From contig OZ244651.1 in NCBI GenBank assembly GCA_965218695.1, forward strand, positions 2,048,001-2,112,000: DNA of 64,000 nucleotides. Reading direction: 5' to 3'. Under the pieces are notes generated by a model. The model was not told where the DNA came from and searched no databases. It saw nothing but the letters and a program-made list of their open reading frames with translations. Position 1 is the first letter of the stretch, and each line of letters begins with the position of its first letter. Of the stretch, positions 1 through 22,095 are shown piece by piece. The DNA comes from Nitrosopumilus sp. (lineage in GTDB: Archaea; Thermoproteota; Nitrososphaeria; Nitrososphaerales; Nitrosopumilaceae). A program made the position numbers and the translations under genes.

Positions 1-93
1 CTATGTTAACCCTCCCCCGGACTTATCCAGTTTTTGCAACCAGTTTGTCACTTTGGGTATGTTTTTTGCCTTCTTAAGCATTACCTGCAAGCA

Positions 94-1306
94 GGGTGTG
101 TCCTAGTAATAAAAAATGCCATTTCATGTGCCAAGATGCCAAAGACATGATTGGTGCCAGAACCCGTCGACGCCAACAGTGCCGCACCATCGATCCTCCA
201 CAACCCATAAAATCCCCCAAATCCAAGACACGGTGCGGAGGCTCCGCTAGGAAGCGCGTGGTGAAACGCGCCAGCTATGCTGCAAGTGTCGCGATTTGAT
301 CCTGTGTGAGCCTGCCGTCTTTTGCCTGCAATCTGGCCACGAGCTCGATGTTGTAGCACATGACACGGATCGCAGTCTCCCTTGTCCGGTTCTCGTGTTT
401 TCGGCACCTGGTGCTGTCCCCGTACATCTTCTTGAGGGCGGCAAAGACTGCCTCGATGATGCTGCGCTGGTGGTATTCCGAGTCAAACCTGTCCCGTTCA
501 TCCATGTACAGGCTTACCATCTCGCGCCACGACTGGCTTCCCCTGGCGTTGCGTATGGTGTTGGATTTTGGCTTGATGCGGGGCACCATTCCCATCGCAG
601 ATATCATGTTGCACATGAGCCTTGCCAGGTATGCAGAATCCAGGCAAAAGTCGCCGGTGCCCCGGCCTAACCTGCCGAGCATCGCGTACAGCCCGTTTAT
701 GTCTGCCACTGCGCTGTCAGTCACCATGCAGTCGATTATCACCCTGGTGCGGATATCCACGATTGCGTGCAGTTTGACCCATCCCTTTCTGGTACGAAAA
801 CTGTCGGTCCTGACGTCAAACCACCTGACAAACCGCAGGTACGAGTATCCGGTACCGTCTGCTGCCAGGGAGCCTGCCTCCACCTCCCTGATGGCAATCC
901 GGTGTGCCTCTGCCAGGTACCATTCCGGGATCAGGCCGTAGGCGCGTGCTATCGTGCTCTTGGAGGGAATTTTCTCTAGGCCCATCTTGGCTGCCATGGC
1001 GCTATTGTTTCGGAGGATGCCGACCATCTTACGGTAGGTCGTGCGCTGTGCCTCAAGCATGATGCAGACAGCTGCCATGGCGCCAGGCGGGTATGCCGTC
1101 ATGCCGCCCAGGCCGGGCCTGACGGCGTACGGATCCCCAAGATTCTTGATTATTCCCAGCACGGTATTCAGCATGAGGCCCGACAGGTACTGCTGAACCA
1201 AATCGTACTGTCGTTGGTCGCGTTTCTTTGTAGTCATTAGGCGATGCCGTGATCCGCCGATCCATATCTTTTGTCATCCGGGGGTATATGCCTCTAGGAC
1301 ACACCC
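94..1306 (-). mobile_element. IS5-family (DDE_Tnp_1, IS903-like) insertion sequence, intact copy
   Basis: 13-bp TIR GGGTGTGTCCTAG at 94-106, reverse complement at 1294-1306; 9-bp target duplication CTGCAAGCA at 85-93 and 1307-1315. Confidence 0.93.
275..1237 (-). CDS. IS5-family transposase (320 aa)
   Basis: DDE motifs LAADGTG, WVKLHAIVD, FCLDSAY, YHQRSIIEAVF. Confidence 0.92.
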   Translation of the reverse strand: MTTKKRDQRQYDLVQQYLSGLMLNTVLGIIKNLGDPYAVRPGLGGMTAYPPGAMAAVCIMLEAQRTTYRKMVGILRNNSAMAAKMGLEKIPSKSTIARAYGLIPEWYLAEAHRIAIREVEAGSLAADGTGYSYLRFVRWFDVRTDSFRTRKGWVKLHAIVDIRTRVIIDCMVTDSAVADINGLYAMLGRLGRGTGDFCLDSAYLARLMCNMISAMGMVPRIKPKSNTIRNARGSQSWREMVSLYMDERDRFDSEYHQRSIIEAVFAALKKMYGDSTRCRKHENRTRETAIRVMCYNIELVARLQAKDGRLTQDQIATLAA

Positions 1307-1377
1307 CTGCAAGCAGAATCCTGCCCGACCGGCAGAAAATACGGCTTTTTGCCCCGCGGTGTGACACGCATAATCCC

Positions 1378-1409
1378 TTCCGGGGGGTCTGGGGGGCTGG
1401 CCCCCCAGC
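1378..1409. other. GC-rich hairpin adjacent to the IS110 insertion point
   Basis: CTGGGGGGC-TG-GCCCCCCAG inverted repeat preceded by a G-run. Confidence 0.6.
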
Positions 1410-1501
1410 ATTCATGTAGAAACATCCCATAGTTCCCATAATTTGTGCACAGCATCCGCTAGACTCGGCATTGCCTACTGGCACCACCACCGGTTCCACA
1501 C

Positions 1502-2620
1502 CTACTCGTCCTTCATGACTTGTCTGATCTTGGAGCGATACAGCTTTTCGTTTCTGTCCTCGTACAGGGTGTCTTCTGTCAGCATGTGCCAGATGATAGT
1601 CAGCATCTTGTTTGCCACGTGCGTTATGGCGACGTGGTGCTTGTGCCTCTTCATGATGCGCGTGTAGTATTCCTTCACCCTTGCGTCATGGAGCACTGCA
1701 GCAAGCGCGCACTGGACCATGATCCAGTTGACCTTCCTGTTTGAGTCCTTTTTCATCCTGCCGTGGTATGACGTGTCGCCTGACTGGTGAAGCGTCGGGC
1801 ACATGCCGGCCCAGGACACGAACTTTTTTGGGTTCCCAAACCGTTTGATGTCGTCGATCTCTGCTGCCAGCAACGCTGCAGAAAATACGTTCATCCCAGT
1901 CATGCTCAGCAGCAGCTTCGGGTAGTGGGTGTCGCGGACGTATCCCTTGATCTCGACTTCGGTCTTTTTTATCTCGTCGTTGCAGTGCCGTATCTGCGAT
2001 ATGCAGCCGTCCAGCACGAACCTGTCCCGAGAATTCTTCATGTCTGCCTCTTCAAGATACTTTAGGGCCTTTCCCCTCCAGATGTGGCGTCCTCCATCCT
2101 TTGGATTTATGTCGCATTTGTCTGTCAGCGTGTGCACAAAGTTGATCACTTTTGTCCGGTCCTGCACCAGGGTTATCTGGTACCTGAGGATCTGCTTCAT
2201 TCCCCTGGATTCGGCCGAGCCTATGTGGCAGCTCGAAATCAAGTCGGCTCGCAGCAGGTGGGCAAGCATCCTTGCGTCTATGGTGTCGTTTTTTATGCTG
2301 GCCGACGAGATTGCCTTGATCTTGAACGGATTGGCAAGCATCAGCGGGATTCCGGCAGATTCAAATGCATCAGCAGTCTTTATCCAGTGGTTTCCTGTGG
2401 ATTCGCAGACTGCCCTGCACTGACCGTATGTGGCCTTTGCGTATGCGGCAAACTCTGATGAATCCCGGGACGTGTTGCTGTACGATGACTCTTCCAGGAT
2501 TGTCCCTTCATGGCTCATCACGCACGTCACGCATTTTCTCTTTCCTATGTCGATTCCAATACTCTTTTCTATTTCTTTCACCTCCTTTTTTTTGTGTGGC
2601 AGGCCGGAAGCTGCATCCAT
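1502..2620 (-). CDS. IS110-family DEDD recombinase/transposase (true start may be GTG at 2581)
   Basis: IGIDIGK, VCESTG, KNDTIDA (DEDD) and SWAGMCP..HQSG (catalytic Ser loop). Confidence 0.95.
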   Translation of the reverse strand: MDAASGLPHKKKEVKEIEKSIGIDIGKRKCVTCVMSHEGTILEESSYSNTSRDSSEFAAYAKATYGQCRAVCESTGNHWIKTADAFESAGIPLMLANPFKIKAISSASIKNDTIDARMLAHLLRADLISSCHIGSAESRGMKQILRYQITLVQDRTKVINFVHTLTDKCDINPKDGGRHIWRGKALKYLEEADMKNSRDRFVLDGCISQIRHCNDEIKKTEVEIKGYVRDTHYPKLLLSMTGMNVFSAALLAAEIDDIKRFGNPKKFVSWAGMCPTLHQSGDTSYHGRMKKDSNRKVNWIMVQCALAAVLHDARVKEYYTRIMKRHKHHVAITHVANKMLTIIWHMLTEDTLYEDRNEKLYRSKIRQVMKDE

Positions 2621-2745
2621 CTATCAGGGCTCGAAGCCCAGTAACACAGCAGCTCGGATCGCCCCATTCAACAACTAGGTCTTTGTGACCAGGTGAATTT
2701 AGGGGTCAGCCCGCCACAGGTAGTGGGTGGGTGGGGTTATCATGT
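2590..2745 (-). ncRNA. Candidate IS110 bridge/seekRNA in 5' non-coding end
   Basis: Contains GTTGTTGAAT (minus 2675-2666), identical to the junction (minus 2755-2746); GGGCT-TCG-AGCCC hairpin at 2627-2639. Confidence 0.55.
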
Positions 2746-2750
2746 ATTCA

Positions 2751-3277
2751 ACAACACCAACGTGTACGCCAACAAAAACGGGGTGATAATCGGCATATCC
2801 AAGAGCACCGTCGGGTCAGTCGGCGACATCACGCTTCTCAAGGAACGCCCCATGCCGTTTGGAAGATGGGAGGAGGCGATGCACGACCCGGATCTGCCCG
2901 AGGCAGAACGGTGCCACGTCTTTGTCGACCGCGGCTACCGGGGGATCGAAAAACACCTGCCCGGCACGACCCCGGAGATCCCGCACAAGAAGAGCAAGAA
3001 GGCGCCCCTGACGCCGGAGCAAAGGGAGCACAACCACAGGATCCACTCCGAGCGCGTGCTAGTCGAGCACACCATAGGCAGGCTCAAGCGCTACGCGCGT
3101 CTTTCCGACCCGTACGACGGAACCGCGGCGCAGTTCAACCGGGAGTTCAACGTGATCACAGGGCTGGTGAACCTGGACCTTTTGTGGGACTACGTGCAAA
3201 AGGGCCCGCCGCCACCGGGCCGGTGGAGGATGCAGGTAGACTGGGACAAAGCCTGCTCCCGGGAGCCTGCCAAGTAG
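2751..3277 (+). pseudogene. C-terminal fragment of IS5-family DDE_Tnp_4 transposase
   Basis: FVDRGYRG, PHKKSKKAPLT..HNHRIHSERVLVEHTIGRLKRY; N-terminal half absent; similar to protein at 12178-13134. Confidence 0.85.
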
Positions 3278-3746
3278 GATTTTCAGGGCACATCAAGGTG
3301 CTGCAGGACTGCGCACGTCATCTCGGATTTTGTAATAAATTAATTTGCCACGCACTTGGCATGATGAACATTTAACCATGTTTTTCTGATTTTATGGCCC
3401 AAACCGGCAAATGGGGGGGGATTACTCATGAGTTCTAATGGGGGAATGCTTGTCTGCATGGGAATGCTGTTGCTCACCGGTTCGCTTACCATGTTTTCAG
3501 ATTTCTTTAATGACGTCCTCAACCCAGATCCTTCCTTGTCATTCCAAAATTAACAAACAACACCTGTAGAATCTAGAACGCATTCTATGCCATTTGATGC
3601 TGTTGTCTCTCCTACATACCTCTTGGCAAAATATCTCGGTCTTGCACAGGGTGGATCCGCATAGCACCGACTGTTATGCGTGTCCTGCCTGCGGACTAAA
3701 ATCCGGCTAGCAACATTAATTTACGCACCGAGGATCTCTAGAAGAA

Positions 3747-4544
3747 ATGTCTGCCGAAACGCATGAGCTTCCGGAACAAGGCGAGATAGTGCTTGCCACC
3801 GTTACCCGGGTGATGGATCACGGTGCATACGTGACGCTTGACGAATATGACAACATTCAGGGATTCCTGCACATCTCGGAGATCGCACCAGGATGGATCA
3901 GAGCCATAAACAGGTTTGTCCGTGACGGAGACAAAAAGGTACTGCTTGTAAAGAAGGTCAATCCAAAACGGGGCGACATTGACCTGTCCCTAAAGCAGGT
4001 ATCAAACGACCAGAGAAAGCAGAAGCTCAAGGAGGTCAAGAAGTTTGAGAAGGGAAGGACGTTGCTCCAGAATGTGCAGGAGAAGGCGGATCTGACAGAC
4101 GCCCAGATTGAAAGTCTGGAGGACAAGATATACTCAAAGTTTGACTCTGTGTATGATGCCTTTGTAAGGATTGGAAGGAATGGGATAGGGGCAGTCAGCG
4201 ATCTGGACATTACCGAGAGAACCGCAGGCGCCATAGAGGAGATCGCATCCAAGATGAAGCTGCCCTCAGTCGAGATCAGAGGCATCATGGAGATTACCAG
4301 CGAGAGACCCGATGGAGTGGAGATTATAAAAAAGACACTGCTGAATGTGCTGGGACGGGATCCTACCATTCGCATTACCTATCTGGGAGCCCCCAAGTAC
4401 CGACTCTCGATAGTCTCAGAGGACTTCAAATCCGCTGAAAAGTCCTTAAAGCCGATAATAAGCAAGATCCAGACCGGGATAACCAAAAAGAAGGGCCTGT
4501 TTAAGTTTACCCGGGAAGAGTCAAAAAAGACGAGGGAGAATTAG
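3747..4544 (+). CDS. eif2a: Translation initiation factor 2 alpha subunit
   Basis: S1 domain LPEQGEIVLATV..GFLHISEIAPGW; YLGAPKYRL. Confidence 0.97.
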   Translation: MSAETHELPEQGEIVLATVTRVMDHGAYVTLDEYDNIQGFLHISEIAPGWIRAINRFVRDGDKKVLLVKKVNPKRGDIDLSLKQVSNDQRKQKLKEVKKFEKGRTLLQNVQEKADLTDAQIESLEDKIYSKFDSVYDAFVRIGRNGIGAVSDLDITERTAGAIEEIASKMKLPSVEIRGIMEITSERPDGVEIIKKTLLNVLGRDPTIRITYLGAPKYRLSIVSEDFKSAEKSLKPIISKIQTGITKKKGLFKFTREESKKTREN

Positions 4545-4700
4545 ATGCGGTTCCAGATGAGGCGATGTTCTGCATGCAACCGGTACACACTGAAGACAAG
4601 ATGCCAGGCATGTGACTCTGAGACCGTCTCCGTGCATCCTGCCAGGTTCTCGCCTGATGACAAATACATGAGATACAGGCTGCCTGAAAGATACGACTAG
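4545..4700 (+). CDS. nop10: H/ACA RNP protein Nop10 (51 aa; not in ORF track)
   Basis: Manual translation MRFQMRRCSACNRYTLKTRCQAC..HPARFSPDDKY; conserved position after aIF2alpha. Confidence 0.95.
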   Translation: MRFQMRRCSACNRYTLKTRCQACDSETVSVHPARFSPDDKYMRYRLPERYD

Positions 4701-6832
4701 GGACTCTGCCCGTACTCGTCATTGACCTCGTATACAAATACCCCAATTACCGCAGTACCCCGTTTGTCTACAAAACTCTGGGAGGCATAGGCCAGTCTGA
4801 GCGGGCCGTCCCCATCGGCAGGATACTTTATGTTCTCGGCATAAATTGGAATCAATCCATTTACAAACACCGGTGACTGTTGCACAGGATTGTTTGGGTT
4901 GACGTACACTACAGGAGTAAACGGAAACATATTTCCAAGGATAGTCTCATTCCAGAAGTAATCCGTGCCGCTTACGCCGTCTGCATGTAGGTACTTGGCG
5001 ATGTCCTGGCCTGCTATTCGTATAAACCAGTGCCTCTTTGAATCATCACCCCCGTAATTCAAGGTGTACAGCGGCTCTCCGGCGTCCGATGGCAGTCTCT
5101 GCGCTGCCACAAAGACAAGTACATAATCTGCCTCCATCTCCTGCAGGGCGTTCCATGCCTGGTCAGGCGTACTCAGAAACATCTCGGCGATGTTTTCAAT
5201 CACGACGGTGCTTACGGTAAAGTTGTCAGCTATGCTTGCCCTCTCCCCCACTGTAGATATCCAGTATCCGTAGTCCCACCATGATGCAATCACGGCATCC
5301 TCCGGCGTATTGGTTCTTATCCATTCCAGCGCGCCCAGCCAGTCATTGGTGGCAACTGGAAAGTATGACGCACCATTGAGGATTGGGGGCGGCTGACTCG
5401 TGACTGCAAACACCTGTGACTCCTCCCCAGCATACACCATGGGAACGATCAGAAGGATTATGATTCCTGCCACATACGGCAGCCTTATGCGGTTCCCTAT
5501 GGGACTCTCCGTGTTCGATCTCTTCCTGAAGAACTCCCTTGTCAGGACGGACAGCCCGATGGCGGCCAGGGCGATCACTCCCACACCTGCAAAGACCTCT
5601 AGTCTGACAAAGGCGGAGCTGATGTATACTCCTGCCATCCCAAGTATCAGTACGAATGCCAGCATGTCGTGTCTGATCGGCGCCGGATTTTCCGAACCGA
5701 TATTCTTGAGTATGAGCCAGACCCCGATGCCGGCAAATATCATGAGAACCGAATGAAACACGAACGACTGGGTTATTGTGGTGGTTGCATGTTCTGAGAT
5801 CGAATCCACCAAGGCGTTTGTCGTGGTCATGAACGGGTTGACGGCGTTGAGATACCTGAAGCTCGGGTTCGGTATAATCTCTGCCTCTGCATTCACTGCC
5901 AGCATACCTGTCCCGACTATGACAAAGGCGGCCAGCAACAGCAGGCCGTTTCTGGTCTTGTGCCTGCCGCTTCTGGACTGGAGCATGACGCAGGAGACCA
6001 GGAATATAGTCGGAACAATCAGCGCGATTCCCTCCATGGAGACAGGAGACAGTCCCCGTGCGAACCCGACTGAGGCCAGAAACGAGACGGCAGTATATAC
6101 CGGGATGGCCCATACAAGAAACCTGTGATTGTCGCGCACAAACGGCAGCACTAGGATAAAGACCCCCACAGGTATTATGAAGAACTGGTTTCCGCCCCAT
6201 GCTGACATGGCAAACGCCGTGAATATGCCGCCCCCTACGATTCTGGCTATGCCTGACATCCTGTTTCCTGCGCCTATTCCGCTTAGGAGGAGATAGATTC
6301 CCAGGATTCCATAGAACAGTCCCAGGGGTTCAGACTTGAACCATCCTAGGGGGCCCCTGACGATTATGGGTAGTGACACAGAGTAGAGTATGGCAGCAAA
6401 GAGCCCTGCAGTCGTTCCGCCCATGACCCTGATCAGGGCAAACAAAACCACCGCAGTCAGCGAGCCGATGACTGCAGGAAAGACTATCGTAAAGTCGTAA
6501 AGACTAGATCCTCCGCCAAACACTTGGTAAGTTGCAGCCGCCGTCAGATGGAGCATAACCTGGGATGTGTCCGATATGTCCCTGCCCGTGGGATGCCAGC
6601 TCAGGTCATCGTGCCACTCATAGTACTGGACAATTCCATTCTCCACCATGTACTGCGTGGCCCGGTAGTTGTAGAATGGATCAAACTCGTTGAGCTCAAA
6701 ACCAAACTCTGCAGGCTGGGAACGAATAAGCATTGATATGGTAAATGACAGGGCAAGGACGCCGATTATCAGAAGATGACTGTACCTTAGATTAAAAGAG
6801 CCGACGGATATGAGAGAAGGATCTGCTTTCAA
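4697..6832 (-). CDS. aglB: Oligosaccharyltransferase AglB/STT3
   Basis: EFDPFYNYR, many TM helices, SISEH, WWDYG motif. Confidence 0.95.
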   Translation of the reverse strand: MKADPSLISVGSFNLRYSHLLIIGVLALSFTISMLIRSQPAEFGFELNEFDPFYNYRATQYMVENGIVQYYEWHDDLSWHPTGRDISDTSQVMLHLTAAATYQVFGGGSSLYDFTIVFPAVIGSLTAVVLFALIRVMGGTTAGLFAAILYSVSLPIIVRGPLGWFKSEPLGLFYGILGIYLLLSGIGAGNRMSGIARIVGGGIFTAFAMSAWGGNQFFIIPVGVFILVLPFVRDNHRFLVWAIPVYTAVSFLASVGFARGLSPVSMEGIALIVPTIFLVSCVMLQSRSGRHKTRNGLLLLAAFVIVGTGMLAVNAEAEIIPNPSFRYLNAVNPFMTTTNALVDSISEHATTTITQSFVFHSVLMIFAGIGVWLILKNIGSENPAPIRHDMLAFVLILGMAGVYISSAFVRLEVFAGVGVIALAAIGLSVLTREFFRKRSNTESPIGNRIRLPYVAGIIILLIVPMVYAGEESQVFAVTSQPPPILNGASYFPVATNDWLGALEWIRTNTPEDAVIASWWDYGYWISTVGERASIADNFTVSTVVIENIAEMFLSTPDQAWNALQEMEADYVLVFVAAQRLPSDAGEPLYTLNYGGDDSKRHWFIRIAGQDIAKYLHADGVSGTDYFWNETILGNMFPFTPVVYVNPNNPVQQSPVFVNGLIPIYAENIKYPADGDGPLRLAYASQSFVDKRGTAVIGVFVYEVNDEYGQSP

Positions 6833-11161: not shown

Positions 11162-12026
11162 ATCTGGAGAAGATCCTGATTTTGTGTCACCAACCGATGA
11201 TGCAGGAGAACCGGAACATTGTGGGTGTGCCCTAGAGGCATATGCCCCCGGATGACAAAAGATATGGATCGGCGGATCACGGCATCGCCTAATGACTACA
11301 AAGAAACGCGACCAACGACAGTACGATTTGGTTCAGCAGTACCTGTCGGGCCTCATGCTGAATACCGTGCTGGGAATAATCAAGAATCTTGGGGATCCGT
11401 ACGCCGTCAGGCCCGGCCTGGGCGGCATGACGGCATACCCGCCTGGCGCCATGGCAGCTGTCTGCATCATGCTTGAGGCACAGCGCACGACCTACCGTAA
11501 GATGGTCGGCATCCTCCGAAACAATAGCGCCATGGCAGCCAAGATGGGCCTAGAGAAAATTCCCTCCAAGAGCACGATAGCACGCGCCTACGGCCTGATC
11601 CCGGAATGGTACCTGGCAGAGGCACACCGGATTGCCATCAGGGAGGTGGAGGCAGGCTCCCTGGCAGCAGACGGTACCGGATACTCGTACCTGCGGTTTG
11701 TCAGGTGGTTTGACGTCAGGACCGACAGTTTTCGTACCAGAAAGGGATGGGTCAAACTGCACGCAATCGTGGATATCCGCACCAGGGTGATAATCGACTG
11801 CATGGTGACTGACAGCGCAGTGGCAGACATAAACGGGCTGTACGCGATGCTCGGCAGGTTAGGCCGGGGCACCGGCGACTTTTGCCTGGATTCTGCATAC
11901 CTGGCAAGGCTCATGTGCAACATGATATCTGCGATGGGAATGGTGCCCCGCATCAAGCCAAAATCCAACACCATACGCAACGCCAGGGGAAGCCAGTCGT
12001 GGCGCGAGATGGTAAGCCTGTACATG

Positions 12027-19236: not shown

Positions 19237-22095
19237 CTAATTGCCTACCTCGATGGTGACAAAGTGCATCTCTGGTACGTCGTCCCTCACTATTATGGTC
19301 CCAACATTGAAGTCGTCGTCGTCGTCCCATACAAAGACGCGCTCGGTGCGTGGCTTGACAAAGTCGTCAATGAAGCCCAGCAGAAGCTCCTCTACATCTT
19401 CACGCTCGTCCTCTGTAAAGAAGAATATCTCTCCTTGGTTGAATGCAAGCGGAACCTGTATTGATGTCGGTTCTGCAACCGTTATCTCGTTCTCCTCGAA
19501 TACGGCCTTTATGATGTCGACTCTGGCGGCCCTGTCAAGCTCTATAAATTCCTCGTTGGCTGCCACTGCAGTAGTAACTCCTGAGACCTTCTTGAGGTAT
19601 GCCTCAAAGGCCTCCTGCTGGGTGTCGCCAAGTCCTACAAAGTATTCGCCGTTGAAGGCCGCGCCCACCGCTGCAATGGTTCCCAGCTGGGCGACCACGC
19701 CTCCGGCCCCCGCCGTATACACCGGAATGAAGTAGATGTCCTGATCGCCTACCCGGTACAGGATGTTGTCACCAATTCTGGGGTTTCTCAGCAGCGTGTT
19801 TAGCTGCGCAAACTCGGGATCCCTGTCAAGTGCCTCCCGGACCGCAGTAGGACCAATTAGCTTGGTGGTGGAGTTGAGCGGGACCTCGTAGAACTGCAGG
19901 TTTCCCAGGTTGGCAAGATCGTTTTCTACCACCATGTATCCTGCAAGGTTCCGGCCCTGCGAGCCCCTCAACTCAAGCGAGAGCAGTCCCAGGAACTCTG
20001 TGCGCTCAAACCCTGGTGGCTTTGCCTCTACATAGTAAGTGTCAAGTCCGCGCGGAATCTCGTAGAACTCGTTTGCTTGGATGAACGTATCGATGCTGGT
20101 CACGTGATAGATGTTGTACATCTCAGTCTTCCAGTTGAAGAGCTCCGCCGGATACCTGATCTGCTCCTCAAGCCATGCAGGCATAAGCTGGAACTGTTCT
20201 TCGTACTGTTCATAGAACATCTCTGTGAAAAAGTCATCACCGGTCTTGAGCAACTGGATGTTGCCATCGTACGAATCCACTAGGGCATATCCCACAAGCC
20301 GCAGATACGGATTGCCTACGGACCAGGGGACATTGTGGGTGTCAAATCCGATTATCAGCGGGATCAGCCAGTATGAGTTTGTTCCATCAGTAACAGGAAG
20401 CGAGTCCAGCTCCGTTCCAAACAGATTGTAAAGGAAGTAAGGGTACAGTATAGACATTCTGTCATTGACGTCCTTGTACCTCATGACATGCACCGCGTCA
20501 GCCGGATACGAAAGCAGGAAGTTTGGCTCAAATATCCAGCTTAGCGGAGGCGGAACATCCAGCCCCCCCCCACCAGAATAGAATGCATTGCCTAGCTCGT
20601 CAGTATTCGTACCGCGGGACGTGGGATATCCTGACCATTTCGTCTCAAACAGCCCGCCTTCTCCATAGTAGATCTCCCTCTGCTGGAAGAACTGACTACT
20701 GTCGACAATCTGACCTTCGGTTGCCTCAAGAGTGAGAAATCCGTTGGGAACGTGGGTGTATACGAGGTGCTCGTTATACCACAGGTTGTCTGCCGCAACT
20801 GATGTGGGTATAATGGGTTTCATCGACGCAGTCCAGTACAGCGTGTTGTTGAATCGAAGAATGTCGTTGTCCTCAAAGTCCACGTACGGGATCAGTCCTA
20901 TCTCCGGCTTTAGCTTGGCAAATGCCGCCTCCCAGTCCCAGACCCGGACGACATCTAGGACATCGCTGTTCTGATCTACGTAGTTGTCTATGTTGTTGGG
21001 CGATACCGACGTAATCTGGACATCGTGGACGTTCTCTTGGATATCGTTTAGTTGGCCAAGATACCTGTTCACCCCTATCTGCTGGGCTGTGTACGGACCA
21101 AGATACTCTATCTTCTTTGCATCTGCTATACTGTCGTTTACTGTAATGATTACGAAGATGGCTATGGCAATTGCAATTATGGTTAGGAATCTGATGTATA
21201 CGTCCCGCTTGAACATATGCGTCAGCACGCGTGCCCGTATTCTGTCAATAATTGAAAAGACGATTAGTGCCGCCCCGATGAGCAGCGTCCCCCCTACGAC
21301 ATACTTTGTGTTGTAATCAATCTGATCTACAAAGAAGGAGTTCATTCCCGCCCAGAGCACGGCAATCCCGGCAATACCCTCGATAGTCGAGACGTAGTTG
21401 AGATACCTTGGCTTTCCATCTACCGAGTCCCTGACATATGATGTAATTACATCGATGATCCTGTGAATCCCGACGTAGAGTACTATGCGCAAGCCGGCTG
21501 CTGCAAGGACTGCCGGAATCAGTATCACTAGGGCCGGAATCATCGGCACCACGTTCTCTACGGCATAACTTGGTTCCGTATCCGGGTTTATAAACGGCAG
21601 CGTGAAGATCGCTGGAACGTTCTCTATTCCAAGCGTGTTGCCCTCAAGGAATGCGACTGCGGCAAACCCGAACATGATGTTTGAAAAGAACGCACCAAAC
21701 AGCAGAATCTTGGTGACCTGCCAGATGCCAAACTGTACAGGCGAGAGCCTGTACTCCTTGAACCTTGCTATGCTTGATGCAAGAGGCTGCTGTCCTCCCT
21801 TACCAAGGTGCCCTATGGTGGTGTTGACTATATACCAGAAGATCGACGCCCTGCCTGCAACATTTACACGTACAAGGGCAACTGCGGAAAGAATGATGGC
21901 GGAGACAAGCGTGTAGTAGAGCGGCTTGCTGAACTGCTCGCCAAACTCTGTAAAGTTCATCGACAGTATGACTGCCTGGTTTCCCACCATTGCAAAGATT
22001 GCAATTGCGATGACTGCTACTATGATCAGCCTGATATACCTGCCAGTATCCGGTGGCGGGTCCTGCTTGTCTGTAGTGGCGCTATACAAAATCAA
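19237..22095 (-). CDS. UPF0182 family membrane protein
   Basis: N-terminal TM helices, VRVWD, NEHLVYTH, IYYGE, QIRYP. Confidence 0.85.
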   Translation of the reverse strand: MILYSATTDKQDPPPDTGRYIRLIIVAVIAIAIFAMVGNQAVILSMNFTEFGEQFSKPLYYTLVSAIILSAVALVRVNVAGRASIFWYIVNTTIGHLGKGGQQPLASSIARFKEYRLSPVQFGIWQVTKILLFGAFFSNIMFGFAAVAFLEGNTLGIENVPAIFTLPFINPDTEPSYAVENVVPMIPALVILIPAVLAAAGLRIVLYVGIHRIIDVITSYVRDSVDGKPRYLNYVSTIEGIAGIAVLWAGMNSFFVDQIDYNTKYVVGGTLLIGAALIVFSIIDRIRARVLTHMFKRDVYIRFLTIIAIAIAIFVIITVNDSIADAKKIEYLGPYTAQQIGVNRYLGQLNDIQENVHDVQITSVSPNNIDNYVDQNSDVLDVVRVWDWEAAFAKLKPEIGLIPYVDFEDNDILRFNNTLYWTASMKPIIPTSVAADNLWYNEHLVYTHVPNGFLTLEATEGQIVDSSQFFQQREIYYGEGGLFETKWSGYPTSRGTNTDELGNAFYSGGGGLDVPPPLSWIFEPNFLLSYPADAVHVMRYKDVNDRMSILYPYFLYNLFGTELDSLPVTDGTNSYWLIPLIIGFDTHNVPWSVGNPYLRLVGYALVDSYDGNIQLLKTGDDFFTEMFYEQYEEQFQLMPAWLEEQIRYPAELFNWKTEMYNIYHVTSIDTFIQANEFYEIPRGLDTYYVEAKPPGFERTEFLGLLSLELRGSQGRNLAGYMVVENDLANLGNLQFYEVPLNSTTKLIGPTAVREALDRDPEFAQLNTLLRNPRIGDNILYRVGDQDIYFIPVYTAGAGGVVAQLGTIAAVGAAFNGEYFVGLGDTQQEAFEAYLKKVSGVTTAVAANEEFIELDRAARVDIIKAVFEENEITVAEPTSIQVPLAFNQGEIFFFTEDEREDVEELLLGFIDDFVKPRTERVFVWDDDDDFNVGTIIVRDDVPEMHFVTIEVGN

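Follow-up and report, generated by a model that had tools for sequence, protein, structure and literature searches.

An insertion sequence of a Nitrosopumilus archaeon with a probable guide RNA upstream of its IS110/IS1111-superfamily recombinase gene

Three nested elements at the start of the window

The window analysed here comprises 64,000 nucleotides (nt) of a Nitrosopumilus sp. genome (NCBI GenBank assembly GCA_965218695.1, contig OZ244651.1, positions 2,048,001 to 2,112,000 of the forward strand). What resembles an insertion sequence (IS) graveyard at its start is three nested elements: an IS5-like element within a recombinase-encoding element, itself within the transposase gene of a further IS. 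We propose, at a probability of roughly 85%, that the middle element is an IS110/IS1111-superfamily insertion sequence of an ammonia-oxidising archaeon, whose upstream two-loop guide RNA, as judged from sequence, matches both its own insertion site and its own ends. The genome encodes an archaeal AmoA (one match at 386 bits, with none in 14 control genomes). An earlier sequence-only reading of this locus had proposed such an RNA: its central inference is right, and half of the anatomy that it gave for the element is wrong. Boundaries, target, fold, catalytic residues and the covariation of all four guide strands are established computationally below, starting from the following features (window positions; C1 coordinates are those of the contig in this genome, G000).

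G000:C1:2047998-2048000, left of the window, minus strand: last 3 nt of the element (ATG of ...CATAGATG, TG core included), from sequence
1..94, minus strand: distal 3′ non-coding region and right end, by homology to uninterrupted paralogues
12-3, minus strand: right subterminal inverted repeat GGGTTAACAT, from sequence
95..1305, minus strand: IS5-like element, 1211 bp, with a transposase open reading frame (ORF) at 275..1237 (minus; Pfam DDE_Tnp_1 and DUF772)
1306..1501, minus strand: proximal 3′ non-coding region, from a 7-copy alignment
1502..2581, minus strand: DEDD recombinase gene, 359 codons from an in-frame GTG at 2581 (Pfam)
2594..2718, minus strand: putative guide (bridge/seek) RNA core, from fold, covariation and covariance model
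2729..2748, minus strand: left end, AATAC and then the left subterminal inverted repeat ATGATAACCC(CACCC), the repeat at 2743-2734(2729)
2749..2755, minus strand: left target GTTGT and TG core at the left junction, from empty sites in host-IS paralogues
2749..3300, plus strand: 3′ part of the disrupted IS5-like transposase gene of the host element (DDE_Tnp_4; PF13359, E 4.5e-14)

Boundaries and insertion site

The element lies on the minus strand, from window position 2748 down to 3 nt left of the window start. It spans 2751 bp here because the 1211-bp IS5-like element later entered the 3′ non-coding region of an element of ~1.53 kb; among the four uninterrupted copies with an intact ORF, three measure 1516-1526 bp and the remaining one 1517 bp. 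A BLAST search of the genome with window 900-3300 returned some nine copies, complete or partial, with identities of 78-100%. Each begins at 2750-2755, as the sequence-only reading had placed the left junction and left end; at 1410 none stops. In copies that reach the right part, homology runs through 1410 to 1306, where the window switches to another repeat, and in uninterrupted copies it extends 86 nt further, ending ...GGGTTAACATAGATG; both limits of the element are sharp in this comparison. The pentamer TGAAT, which had been taken as the right junction, is indeed present at minus 1414-1410, but is internal, the paralogues being conserved through 1410. Because of this homology through 1410 to 1306, and 86 nt beyond in uninterrupted copies, the reconstructed target GTTGTTGAAT|GCTGGGG and the circle junction CTACATGAAT|ACATGATA have to be replaced: the true target is GGTGTTGT-TG-GTGAAC, and the true ends, when abutted, read ...AACATAGA-TG-AATACATG....

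Paralogues and empty sites give the junctions as GGTGTTGT[TG]|AATACATG and CATAGA[TG]|GTGAAC, or, written around the core, ...GTTGT-TG-AATACATG... on the left and ...CATAGA-TG-GTGAAC... on the right. The TG dinucleotide is common to target and ends, so that filled and empty sites overlap by 2 nt with no long target duplication. In all four public runs examined, contigs contain a form skipping exactly 2751 nt with 2 shared letters (joint 118->2870 in L001), and in two of the four a form skipping 1222 nt with 11 shared letters; since these contigs were matched at 90% likeness and possibly come from paralogues, they confirm the boundaries and not excision. The right-left (circle) joint was not seen in the contigs of the four runs, but contigs drop rare forms, so that this absence carries no weight. 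The ends read TGAATAC-ATGATAACCC ... GGGTTAACAT-AGA, an inverted repeat of 10 bp with one mismatch or of 15 bp with three, and leave extensions of 7 nt on the left and 3 nt on the right (the core counted on the left). Subterminal repeats of 12-15 bp occur in the same arrangement in four relatives (L036, L099, L107 and L113).

The target lies within the transposase gene of another IS, ~20 codons ahead of the second D of this DDE_Tnp_4 gene, the 5′ part of which continues left of the window past the element's right end. Uninterrupted host-IS paralogues read GGTGTTATTG|GTGAATTTC, with empty sites at C1:2369371/2 and C1:1020813/4. A second copy, 100% identical over 1417 bp, occupies the same site in another host-IS paralogue, the two copies having flanks that are 1.6% and 7.6% different. 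Two recent site-specific insertions, independent of each other, are suggested by this, with gene conversion as a possible alternative. At G000:C1:393597-394852, that twin carries a ~1255-bp insertion after element position 28, just upstream of the RNA closing helix. At G000:C1:629835-630446, a host-IS copy is joined to the element's first 73 nt, which break off 1 nt before the internal GTTGTTGAAT and give way to unrelated sequence.

The recombinase

The protein matches PF01548 (DEDD_Tnp_IS110, E 3.4e-24) and then PF02371 (Transposase_20, E 1.4e-22), both beyond the curated cut-offs. The catalytic residues D11, E60, D102, D105 and S241 of IS621 (8wt6; residue numbers from PMC11208158) align by phmmer to identical residues, within the motifs IGID, cE(S/A)TG, DT(I/V)DAR and (Q/E)SG. 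The start codon is uncertain: a Shine-Dalgarno-like GGAGGTG includes the in-frame GTG, relatives carry an ATG 6-10 nt downstream, and the other subfamilies do not keep the ATG at 2620 in frame. Six of the eight copies examined in this genome retain the full ORF, four of these uninterrupted; in the window copy, RNA and ORF are intact and the IS5-like insertion lies in the 3′ region. The closest relatives of the recombinase are 83%, 81% and 64% identical, all in Nitrosopumilus sp. records, and a metagenome scan for near relatives found only proteins at <=43% identity.

A two-loop RNA fold upstream of the gene

A predicted guide RNA of ~125-160 nt lies immediately upstream of the recombinase gene, in a 5′ non-coding region of 164 nt. 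These 164 nt between left end and gene fold with a minimum free energy of -55.1 kcal/mol (z -3.47). A closing helix (2718-2707 with 2606-2595) surrounds two modules, each made of a stem, an internal loop and a hairpin: the target module has the stem CCCC/GGGG and the hairpin GGUC/GACC, and the donor module the stem GAGCUGC/GCAGCUU and the hairpin GGGC/GCCC. The loops contain the following, all on the minus strand.

2692..2700: target loop 5′ strand AAAUUCACC, complementary to the top strand right of the TG core
2678..2690: target-module hairpin GGUC-ACAAA-GACC, two of its four pairs changed on both sides
2666..2675: target loop 3′ strand GUUGU-UG-AAU, identical to the 5-nt left target, TG core and the element's first 3 nt
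2643..2648: donor loop 5′ strand UGUGUU, able to pair with the left end's first 6 nt (AATACA, one G:T)
2627..2639: donor-module hairpin GGGCU-UCG-AGCCC, its pair 85/93 being GC in five sequences and AU in four
2615..2624: donor loop 3′ strand AUAGA-UG-GAU, identical to right end ATAGA and TG core, plus 3 nt

In an alignment of ten sequences from three genomes, the 31 pairs of this structure are paired in 97.5% of cells, and seven have changed on both sides; none of 500 shuffles was as good. In a slid control, with partners moved by 1-3 columns, only 34-50% of cells were paired and 0-1 pairs changed on both sides. As the sequences are related and the structure was chosen from them, this control flatters the fold somewhat, and the compensatory pairs are the stronger evidence. 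Folding the upstream region was a check that the sequence-only reading had itself proposed, and its z of -3.47 and seven compensatory pairs support a structured RNA there. The GGGCT-TCG-AGCCC hairpin that this reading saw between the two segments is present at 2639-2627. The supposed donor guide TAGATGGAT, given at minus 2624-2616, is present but one base off, at 2623-2615. It does lie in the donor loop, but its 7/9 match to 'TACATGAAT' is coincidental, the real correspondence being 7/7 to the right end ATAGATG. The first base of the 3-nt tail of the donor loop 3′ strand is the first base of the right target.

Could the target-like and end-like segments instead act as DNA, as recombinase-binding or synapsis sites, with the fold incidental? 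No transcript has been seen, and transposases often bind near the end of an element, which is where these segments are found (within 170 nt of the left end). We nevertheless hold this to be very improbable: the stems keep pairing through seven compensatory pairs, against 0-1 in the slid controls, which DNA sites would not need; in both loops one strand is complementary and the other same-sense, as in the RNA-DNA scheme solved for IS621; and in a sister clade the homologous module follows the gene and is remote from the left end.

Loop strands follow targets and ends

The 10-mer GTTGTTGAAT, which the sequence-only reading had found at minus 2755-2746 and 2675-2666, is present at both places. 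The window has three occurrences of it in all, where 0.14 would be expected, a number that 100 shuffles never gave. Its third occurrence, at 20845-20854 (plus), is followed by AAT and not GTGAA, without a full target site. Were the window copy considered alone, one 10-mer match within 80 nt might have arisen by minor duplication in place, and the identity could be a chance match or functionless by-product of insertion, such as a duplicated flank. The count of three speaks against this, and so does the comparison across copies.

For that comparison we built a covariance model, R1, and assembled 33 RNAs from the window, its own genome, 19 other genomes of the family, two metagenome-assembled genomes and one metagenome contig. 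The segments for the own-genome, family-wide and donor counts were taken by hand from printed alignments and flanks and not extracted blind. The left-side set drops three exact duplicate pairs (L007, L013 and L097) and one locus with a cut flank (L106); the right-side set takes the 16 of 33 stretches in which the right end has a single exact candidate, two of them duplicates, and adds the window and c192. Across 29 distinct pairs, the left target agrees with its guide at 114 of 145 positions (shuffle mean 47, maximum 74; 0/200,000 as high), with scores of 5/5 in eleven pairs, 4/5 in eleven, 3/5 in two, 2/5 in four and 1/5 in one. The right target agrees at 81 of 112 positions over 16 distinct pairs (0/200,000 shuffles as high), and within the window's own genome the left target agrees at 52/60 over 12 distinct pairs (0/100,000 as high). 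The donor loop behaves alike: over 19 distinct pairs, the first six bases of its 5′ strand and of the left end give 91 Watson-Crick and 6 wobble matches in 114 positions (no shuffle above 86, 0/200,000 as high), and the 7-mer of its 3′ strand covaries with the right end (ATAGATG, ATAGGTG, ATGGATG), as a single exact candidate wherever the right end was found. These counts refute a chance match: the five variable nucleotides follow their own flank in 29 distinct elements, no shuffle exceeded 74, and the other three strands do likewise, which leaves that explanation with a negligible probability. They also identify the internal 10-mer as a target guide of 5 nt that would pair with the bottom strand, the 2-nt core, and a 3-nt extension. 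This extension equals the element's first bases and resembles the handshake guides described for IS621 (PMC11208158).

Subfamilies in this genome differ by 10-22% and occupy different targets, and the loop strands change in step.

Window: target GTTGT-TG-GTGAAC; 3′ strand GUUGU-UG-AAU; 5′ strand AAAUUCACC
c192, c213: target GTTGG-TG-CGTAATT; 3′ strand GUUGU-UG-AAU; 5′ strand AAUUACG-CA
c778, c243, c239, c1622: target CC(C/T)GT-TG-CATAATT; 3′ strand C(C/U)UGU-UG-AAU; 5′ strand (A/G)AUUAUG-CA
c2257: target TTTGG-TG-ATCTG; 3′ strand UUUAG-UG-AAU; 5′ strand CAGAU-CA
c912, c376: target GTTCG-TG-...; 3′ strand GUUCG-UG-AAU

The same holds in a metagenomic relative at 41% identity (L036), with target TATCCA-TG-AAAGGC and guides AUCCA-UG and GCCUUU-CA. 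The comparison of other copies and empty sites, likewise proposed beforehand, found loop strands that track their targets, and on these sequences the covariation amounts to natural reprogramming. In an unbiased scan for shared stretches of at least 7 nt between target and element interior, the peak fell at element positions 48-51 (7/8 copies). The sole other position that tracked its own flank was 74 (2/8 copies), and the remaining fixed-place hits are sequences conserved in all subfamilies. Empty candidate sites in the genome number 2, 3 and 10 pattern matches for three guide types, and zero for two others.

Several observations weigh against our proposal. In the window copy, the right-target strand matches at 2/7 in register, against 8/9 when shifted by 1 nt (6/7 over those 7 nt), and its core-pairing dinucleotide is CC, against CA in other subfamilies. 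Shifted, the strand matches the paralogous host-IS sites at 9/9, and the alternatives for the register of the right target are TG-GTGAATTT and TG-TGAATTT. Perhaps the guide register is flexible, and the window copy may work with this strand slipped by 1 nt. Left-flank matches are poor in L110 (1/5) and in L023, L102, L092 and L112 (2/5), as is the right-flank match of L104 (2/7). Both the window copy and its identical twin are interrupted by other ISs. An Rfam search (cmscan of window 1-6000, E up to 1) gave no match in 1306-2755, and two unrelated sub-threshold matches elsewhere. R1 found no significant match in the non-coding regions of IS5075 (Klebsiella plasmid) or of related elements on a Haloarcula and a Neorhizobium plasmid (best E 0.075, partial, helix only). 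Lastly, no transcript, circle junction or activity has been observed; of 23 runs listed, none is on record as RNA.

A proposed mechanism

The RNA-guided mechanism is established for IS621, ISEc11 and ISEc21 (PMC11208160, PMC11208158, PMC11187229), and by analogy with these we infer transcription of the RNA, its binding by the recombinase, the circle and the chemistry. The element would excise as a circle in which right and left ends abut as ...AACATAGA-TG-AATACATG..., or in longer form ...GGGTTAACATAGA-TG-AATACATGATAACC.... In the RNA-recombinase complex, one loop would pair with this junction and the other with the genomic site, with strand exchange at the TG dinucleotide. The 5′ strand of the target loop would read the top strand right of the core as its complement; the 3′ strand is the top strand left of the core, would therefore pair with the bottom strand, and would continue for 3 nt into the element's first bases. 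The donor loop would read the abutted right and left ends likewise.

A probable IS1111-type element with its RNA upstream

How should such an element be classified? The sequence-only reading called it an IS110. Pfam places the protein in that DEDD family, but the label 'IS110-type' is not supported: guide order, repeats and extensions are IS1111-type. Siddiquee et al. 2024 (PMC11187229) describe seekRNAs of the IS1111 group in which the complement of the top strand precedes the match to the bottom strand, opposite to the IS110 type. In their account, members of the group carry subterminal inverted repeats, usually of 11-13 bp, beyond which the element extends by 7 nt on the left and 3 nt on the right, and the long non-coding region with the RNA is usually downstream of the gene, with exceptions. 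Both loops of the window element show the IS1111 order, and the RNA lies upstream of the gene. We therefore file it, on guide order, subterminal repeats and 7/3-nt extensions, as putatively IS1111-type with an upstream RNA.

The principal alternative is a canonical IS110-group, IS621-like bridge-RNA element, with its left-target guide on the 5′ side of the loop, its right-target guide on the 3′ side, and no or very short repeats. Upstream of the gene is the usual place of the RNA in the IS110 group (PMC11208160, PMC11187229), and IS621 is the only solved relative that we found (E 8.5e-13). The guide order here is nonetheless the reverse of that of IS621 and ISEc21, and the subterminal inverted repeats are long, 10-15 bp with the 7-nt left and 3-nt right extensions. 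Moreover, IS5075 and IS4321, which a title in the reference list of PMC11208160 assigns to the IS1111 family, align in one piece (residues 8-346, 94% of the protein, but only 22.7% identity, E 7e-13), whilst the similarity to IS621 is weak and partial, in two stretches (residues 7-178 and 202-295). We thus consider a canonical IS110-group element improbable and retain the putative IS1111-type assignment.

Likenesses to characterised systems run in both directions. The studied IS1111 members (ISEc11, ISPa11, ISKpn4 and ISPst6) likewise have a DEDD recombinase, subterminal repeats with 7/3-nt extensions, a shared dinucleotide and natural reprogramming (PMC11187229); they differ in that their RNA is downstream, whereas here it is upstream, accompanied by an extra conserved 281-nt 3′ region and found in an archaeal host. 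As R1 did not detect the non-coding region of IS5075, homology of the RNA to that of studied members is unsupported. Bridge RNAs of IS621 and the IS110 group (PMC11208160, PMC11208158) share the position upstream of the recombinase gene in the left end. IS621 also shares the two modules, each of stem, guide, stem-loop and guide, with one strand reading the top DNA and the other the bottom, core included, the short extension that reads the other partner, and the conserved D, E, D, D and Ser. The IS621 loop, by contrast, runs from left guide (bottom strand) through stem-loop to right guide (top strand) (PMC11208158), the reverse of the order here; its core is CT and not TG; long subterminal repeats are a feature of our element; and a long-range helix closes both modules here, where in IS621 the two modules come one after the other behind a 5′ stem-loop. 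Among the exceptions named in PMC11187229, compared by description only, are ISMtsp17, with an upstream non-coding region, and ISHvo10/ISAcp5, with long regions on both sides; like the latter, our element combines an upstream RNA region (164 nt) with a long downstream region (281 nt). ISEc21, of the IS110 family, is likewise an RNA-guided IS whose constant insertion site lies in the DDE transposase gene of a different IS (PMC11187229). Its target is a conserved stretch of IS3-family transposase genes, whereas here the host IS is IS5-like, and the targets of the element's other subfamilies in this genome are quite unlike this one.

Distribution and gene order

R1 matches 18 places in the window's own genome. 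Of 150 further genomes sampled from the family, 26 have matches, at up to 21 places per genome, and one of the 26 (G077) is unpublished (25/149 without it); counting the own genus and genome, matches span 11 of 27 genera. Among recombinase relatives from genome and metagenome collections, the RNA lies upstream of the gene in the window clade (window, L021 and L036) and in a second clade (L042 and L039). It lies downstream in another, well supported clade, where 10 of the 18 rows have a match. A further 'upstream' match, in L038, belongs to a neighbouring element. In L021 and L022, R1 has no match in the 3′ region. The recombinase tree is midpoint-rooted only, and does not give the direction in which the RNA moved.

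The conserved 3′ non-coding region

The 281-nt 3′ region is near-invariant across subfamilies that differ by 10-22% elsewhere (7-copy alignment) and carries a CUGGGGGG/CCCCCCAG hairpin, and relatives at 41-51% protein identity have merely ~60-85 nt in its place. It could be a second functional module, for example an archaeal BRE/TATA promoter that reads across the right-left junction in the circle only. We also entertained the idea that this conserved right flank is a separate repeat that is always targeted, and rejected it on the sharp limits and on finding no solo copy of 1409-1306 in the genome. Two target-like stretches within the region, ATTATGCA (element position ~1373) and GATCTGGC (1407), were considered as guides; they are not, because they are conserved in all subfamilies. 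The sequence at window 1422-1409 (TTTCTACATGAATG) resembles the right end of the 41-51% relatives, and may be what is left of an earlier right end that was shorter.

Tentatively, and with more doubt than conviction, we can also envisage a distinct archaeal lineage of RNA-guided recombinases, in which an IS1111-type RNA has moved to the 5′ leader and gained a long-range helix, with the 3′ region as a second module and a flexible register. If so, this would be a compact programmable recombinase for which archaeal, eukaryote-like transcription is native, and its rules could be learnt from 20 or more guide variants that occur naturally.

Relation to earlier surveys and implications

The mechanism is the one expected for the family, the arrangement is uncommon, and the lineage is one for which we found no earlier description. 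Bridge RNAs have been predicted for most ISfinder entries of IS110 and IS1111 (Durrant et al. 2024, PMC11208160), 662 archaeal IS110 recombinases have been counted (Vaysset et al.), and a 2026 preprint (10.64898/2026.10.21.760802) clustered 181,180 IS110-adjacent intergenic sequences from bacteria and archaea. We found no paper that links IS110/IS1111 guide RNAs to Thaumarchaeota or Nitrosopumilus, in a search that did not extend to the supplements of key papers, which may list related archaeal elements; those of Durrant, Vaysset and the 2026 preprint may already include this RNA.

The findings extend RNA-guided recombination to ammonia-oxidising archaea, on evidence that is at the level of sequence and covers each of the four guide strands. 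One genome supplies five guide variants with their cognate targets and the relatives supply 29, a compact natural data set that can be used for the pairing rules of IS1111-type RNAs. The element also offers a concrete case of sister recombinase clades that differ in whether a homologous RNA module precedes or follows the gene. For genome annotation, the start of the window is now resolved into its three elements.

The IS5-like insertion, other copies and neighbouring genes

The IS5-like element is outside the guide-RNA system and splits the 3′ non-coding region. Its insertion made an 11-bp target duplication, CTGCTTGCAGG, one copy of which is window 84-94. It looks recently active, because the genome matches it at 27 other places with 90-100% identity, of which 14 reach 100%. 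It is also present at window ~11223-11629 (C1:2059223-2059629). It entered the palindromic CTGC(A/T)TGCAGG of the 3′ region, at an identical place in two copies, that of the window and C1:192790-195544, which are only 88% alike within the element.

Elsewhere in the genome, two intact inverted copies of the recombinase-encoding element, at C1:239028-240550 (plus) and 241662-243194 (minus) of G000, surround ~1.1 kb in a composite-transposon-like arrangement. Outside the window, at G000:C1:2266382-2266648, two solo right-end fragments of 117 and 100 nt lie inverted ~50 nt apart with their termini outward. Both are flanked by TGGATCT; the right flank of L022, in another genome, is TGGATCC. This pair could be a derivative resembling a miniature inverted-repeat transposable element (MITE), or the product of half-site recombination.

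The neighbours of the nested elements at window 3747-6832, named from a reading of their translations only, look archaeal: an S1-domain ORF resembling aIF2-alpha (3747-4544), a Nop10-like zinc-ribbon ORF (4545-4700), and, at 4697-6832 (minus), a membrane protein of 711 amino acids that resembles an oligosaccharyl transferase.

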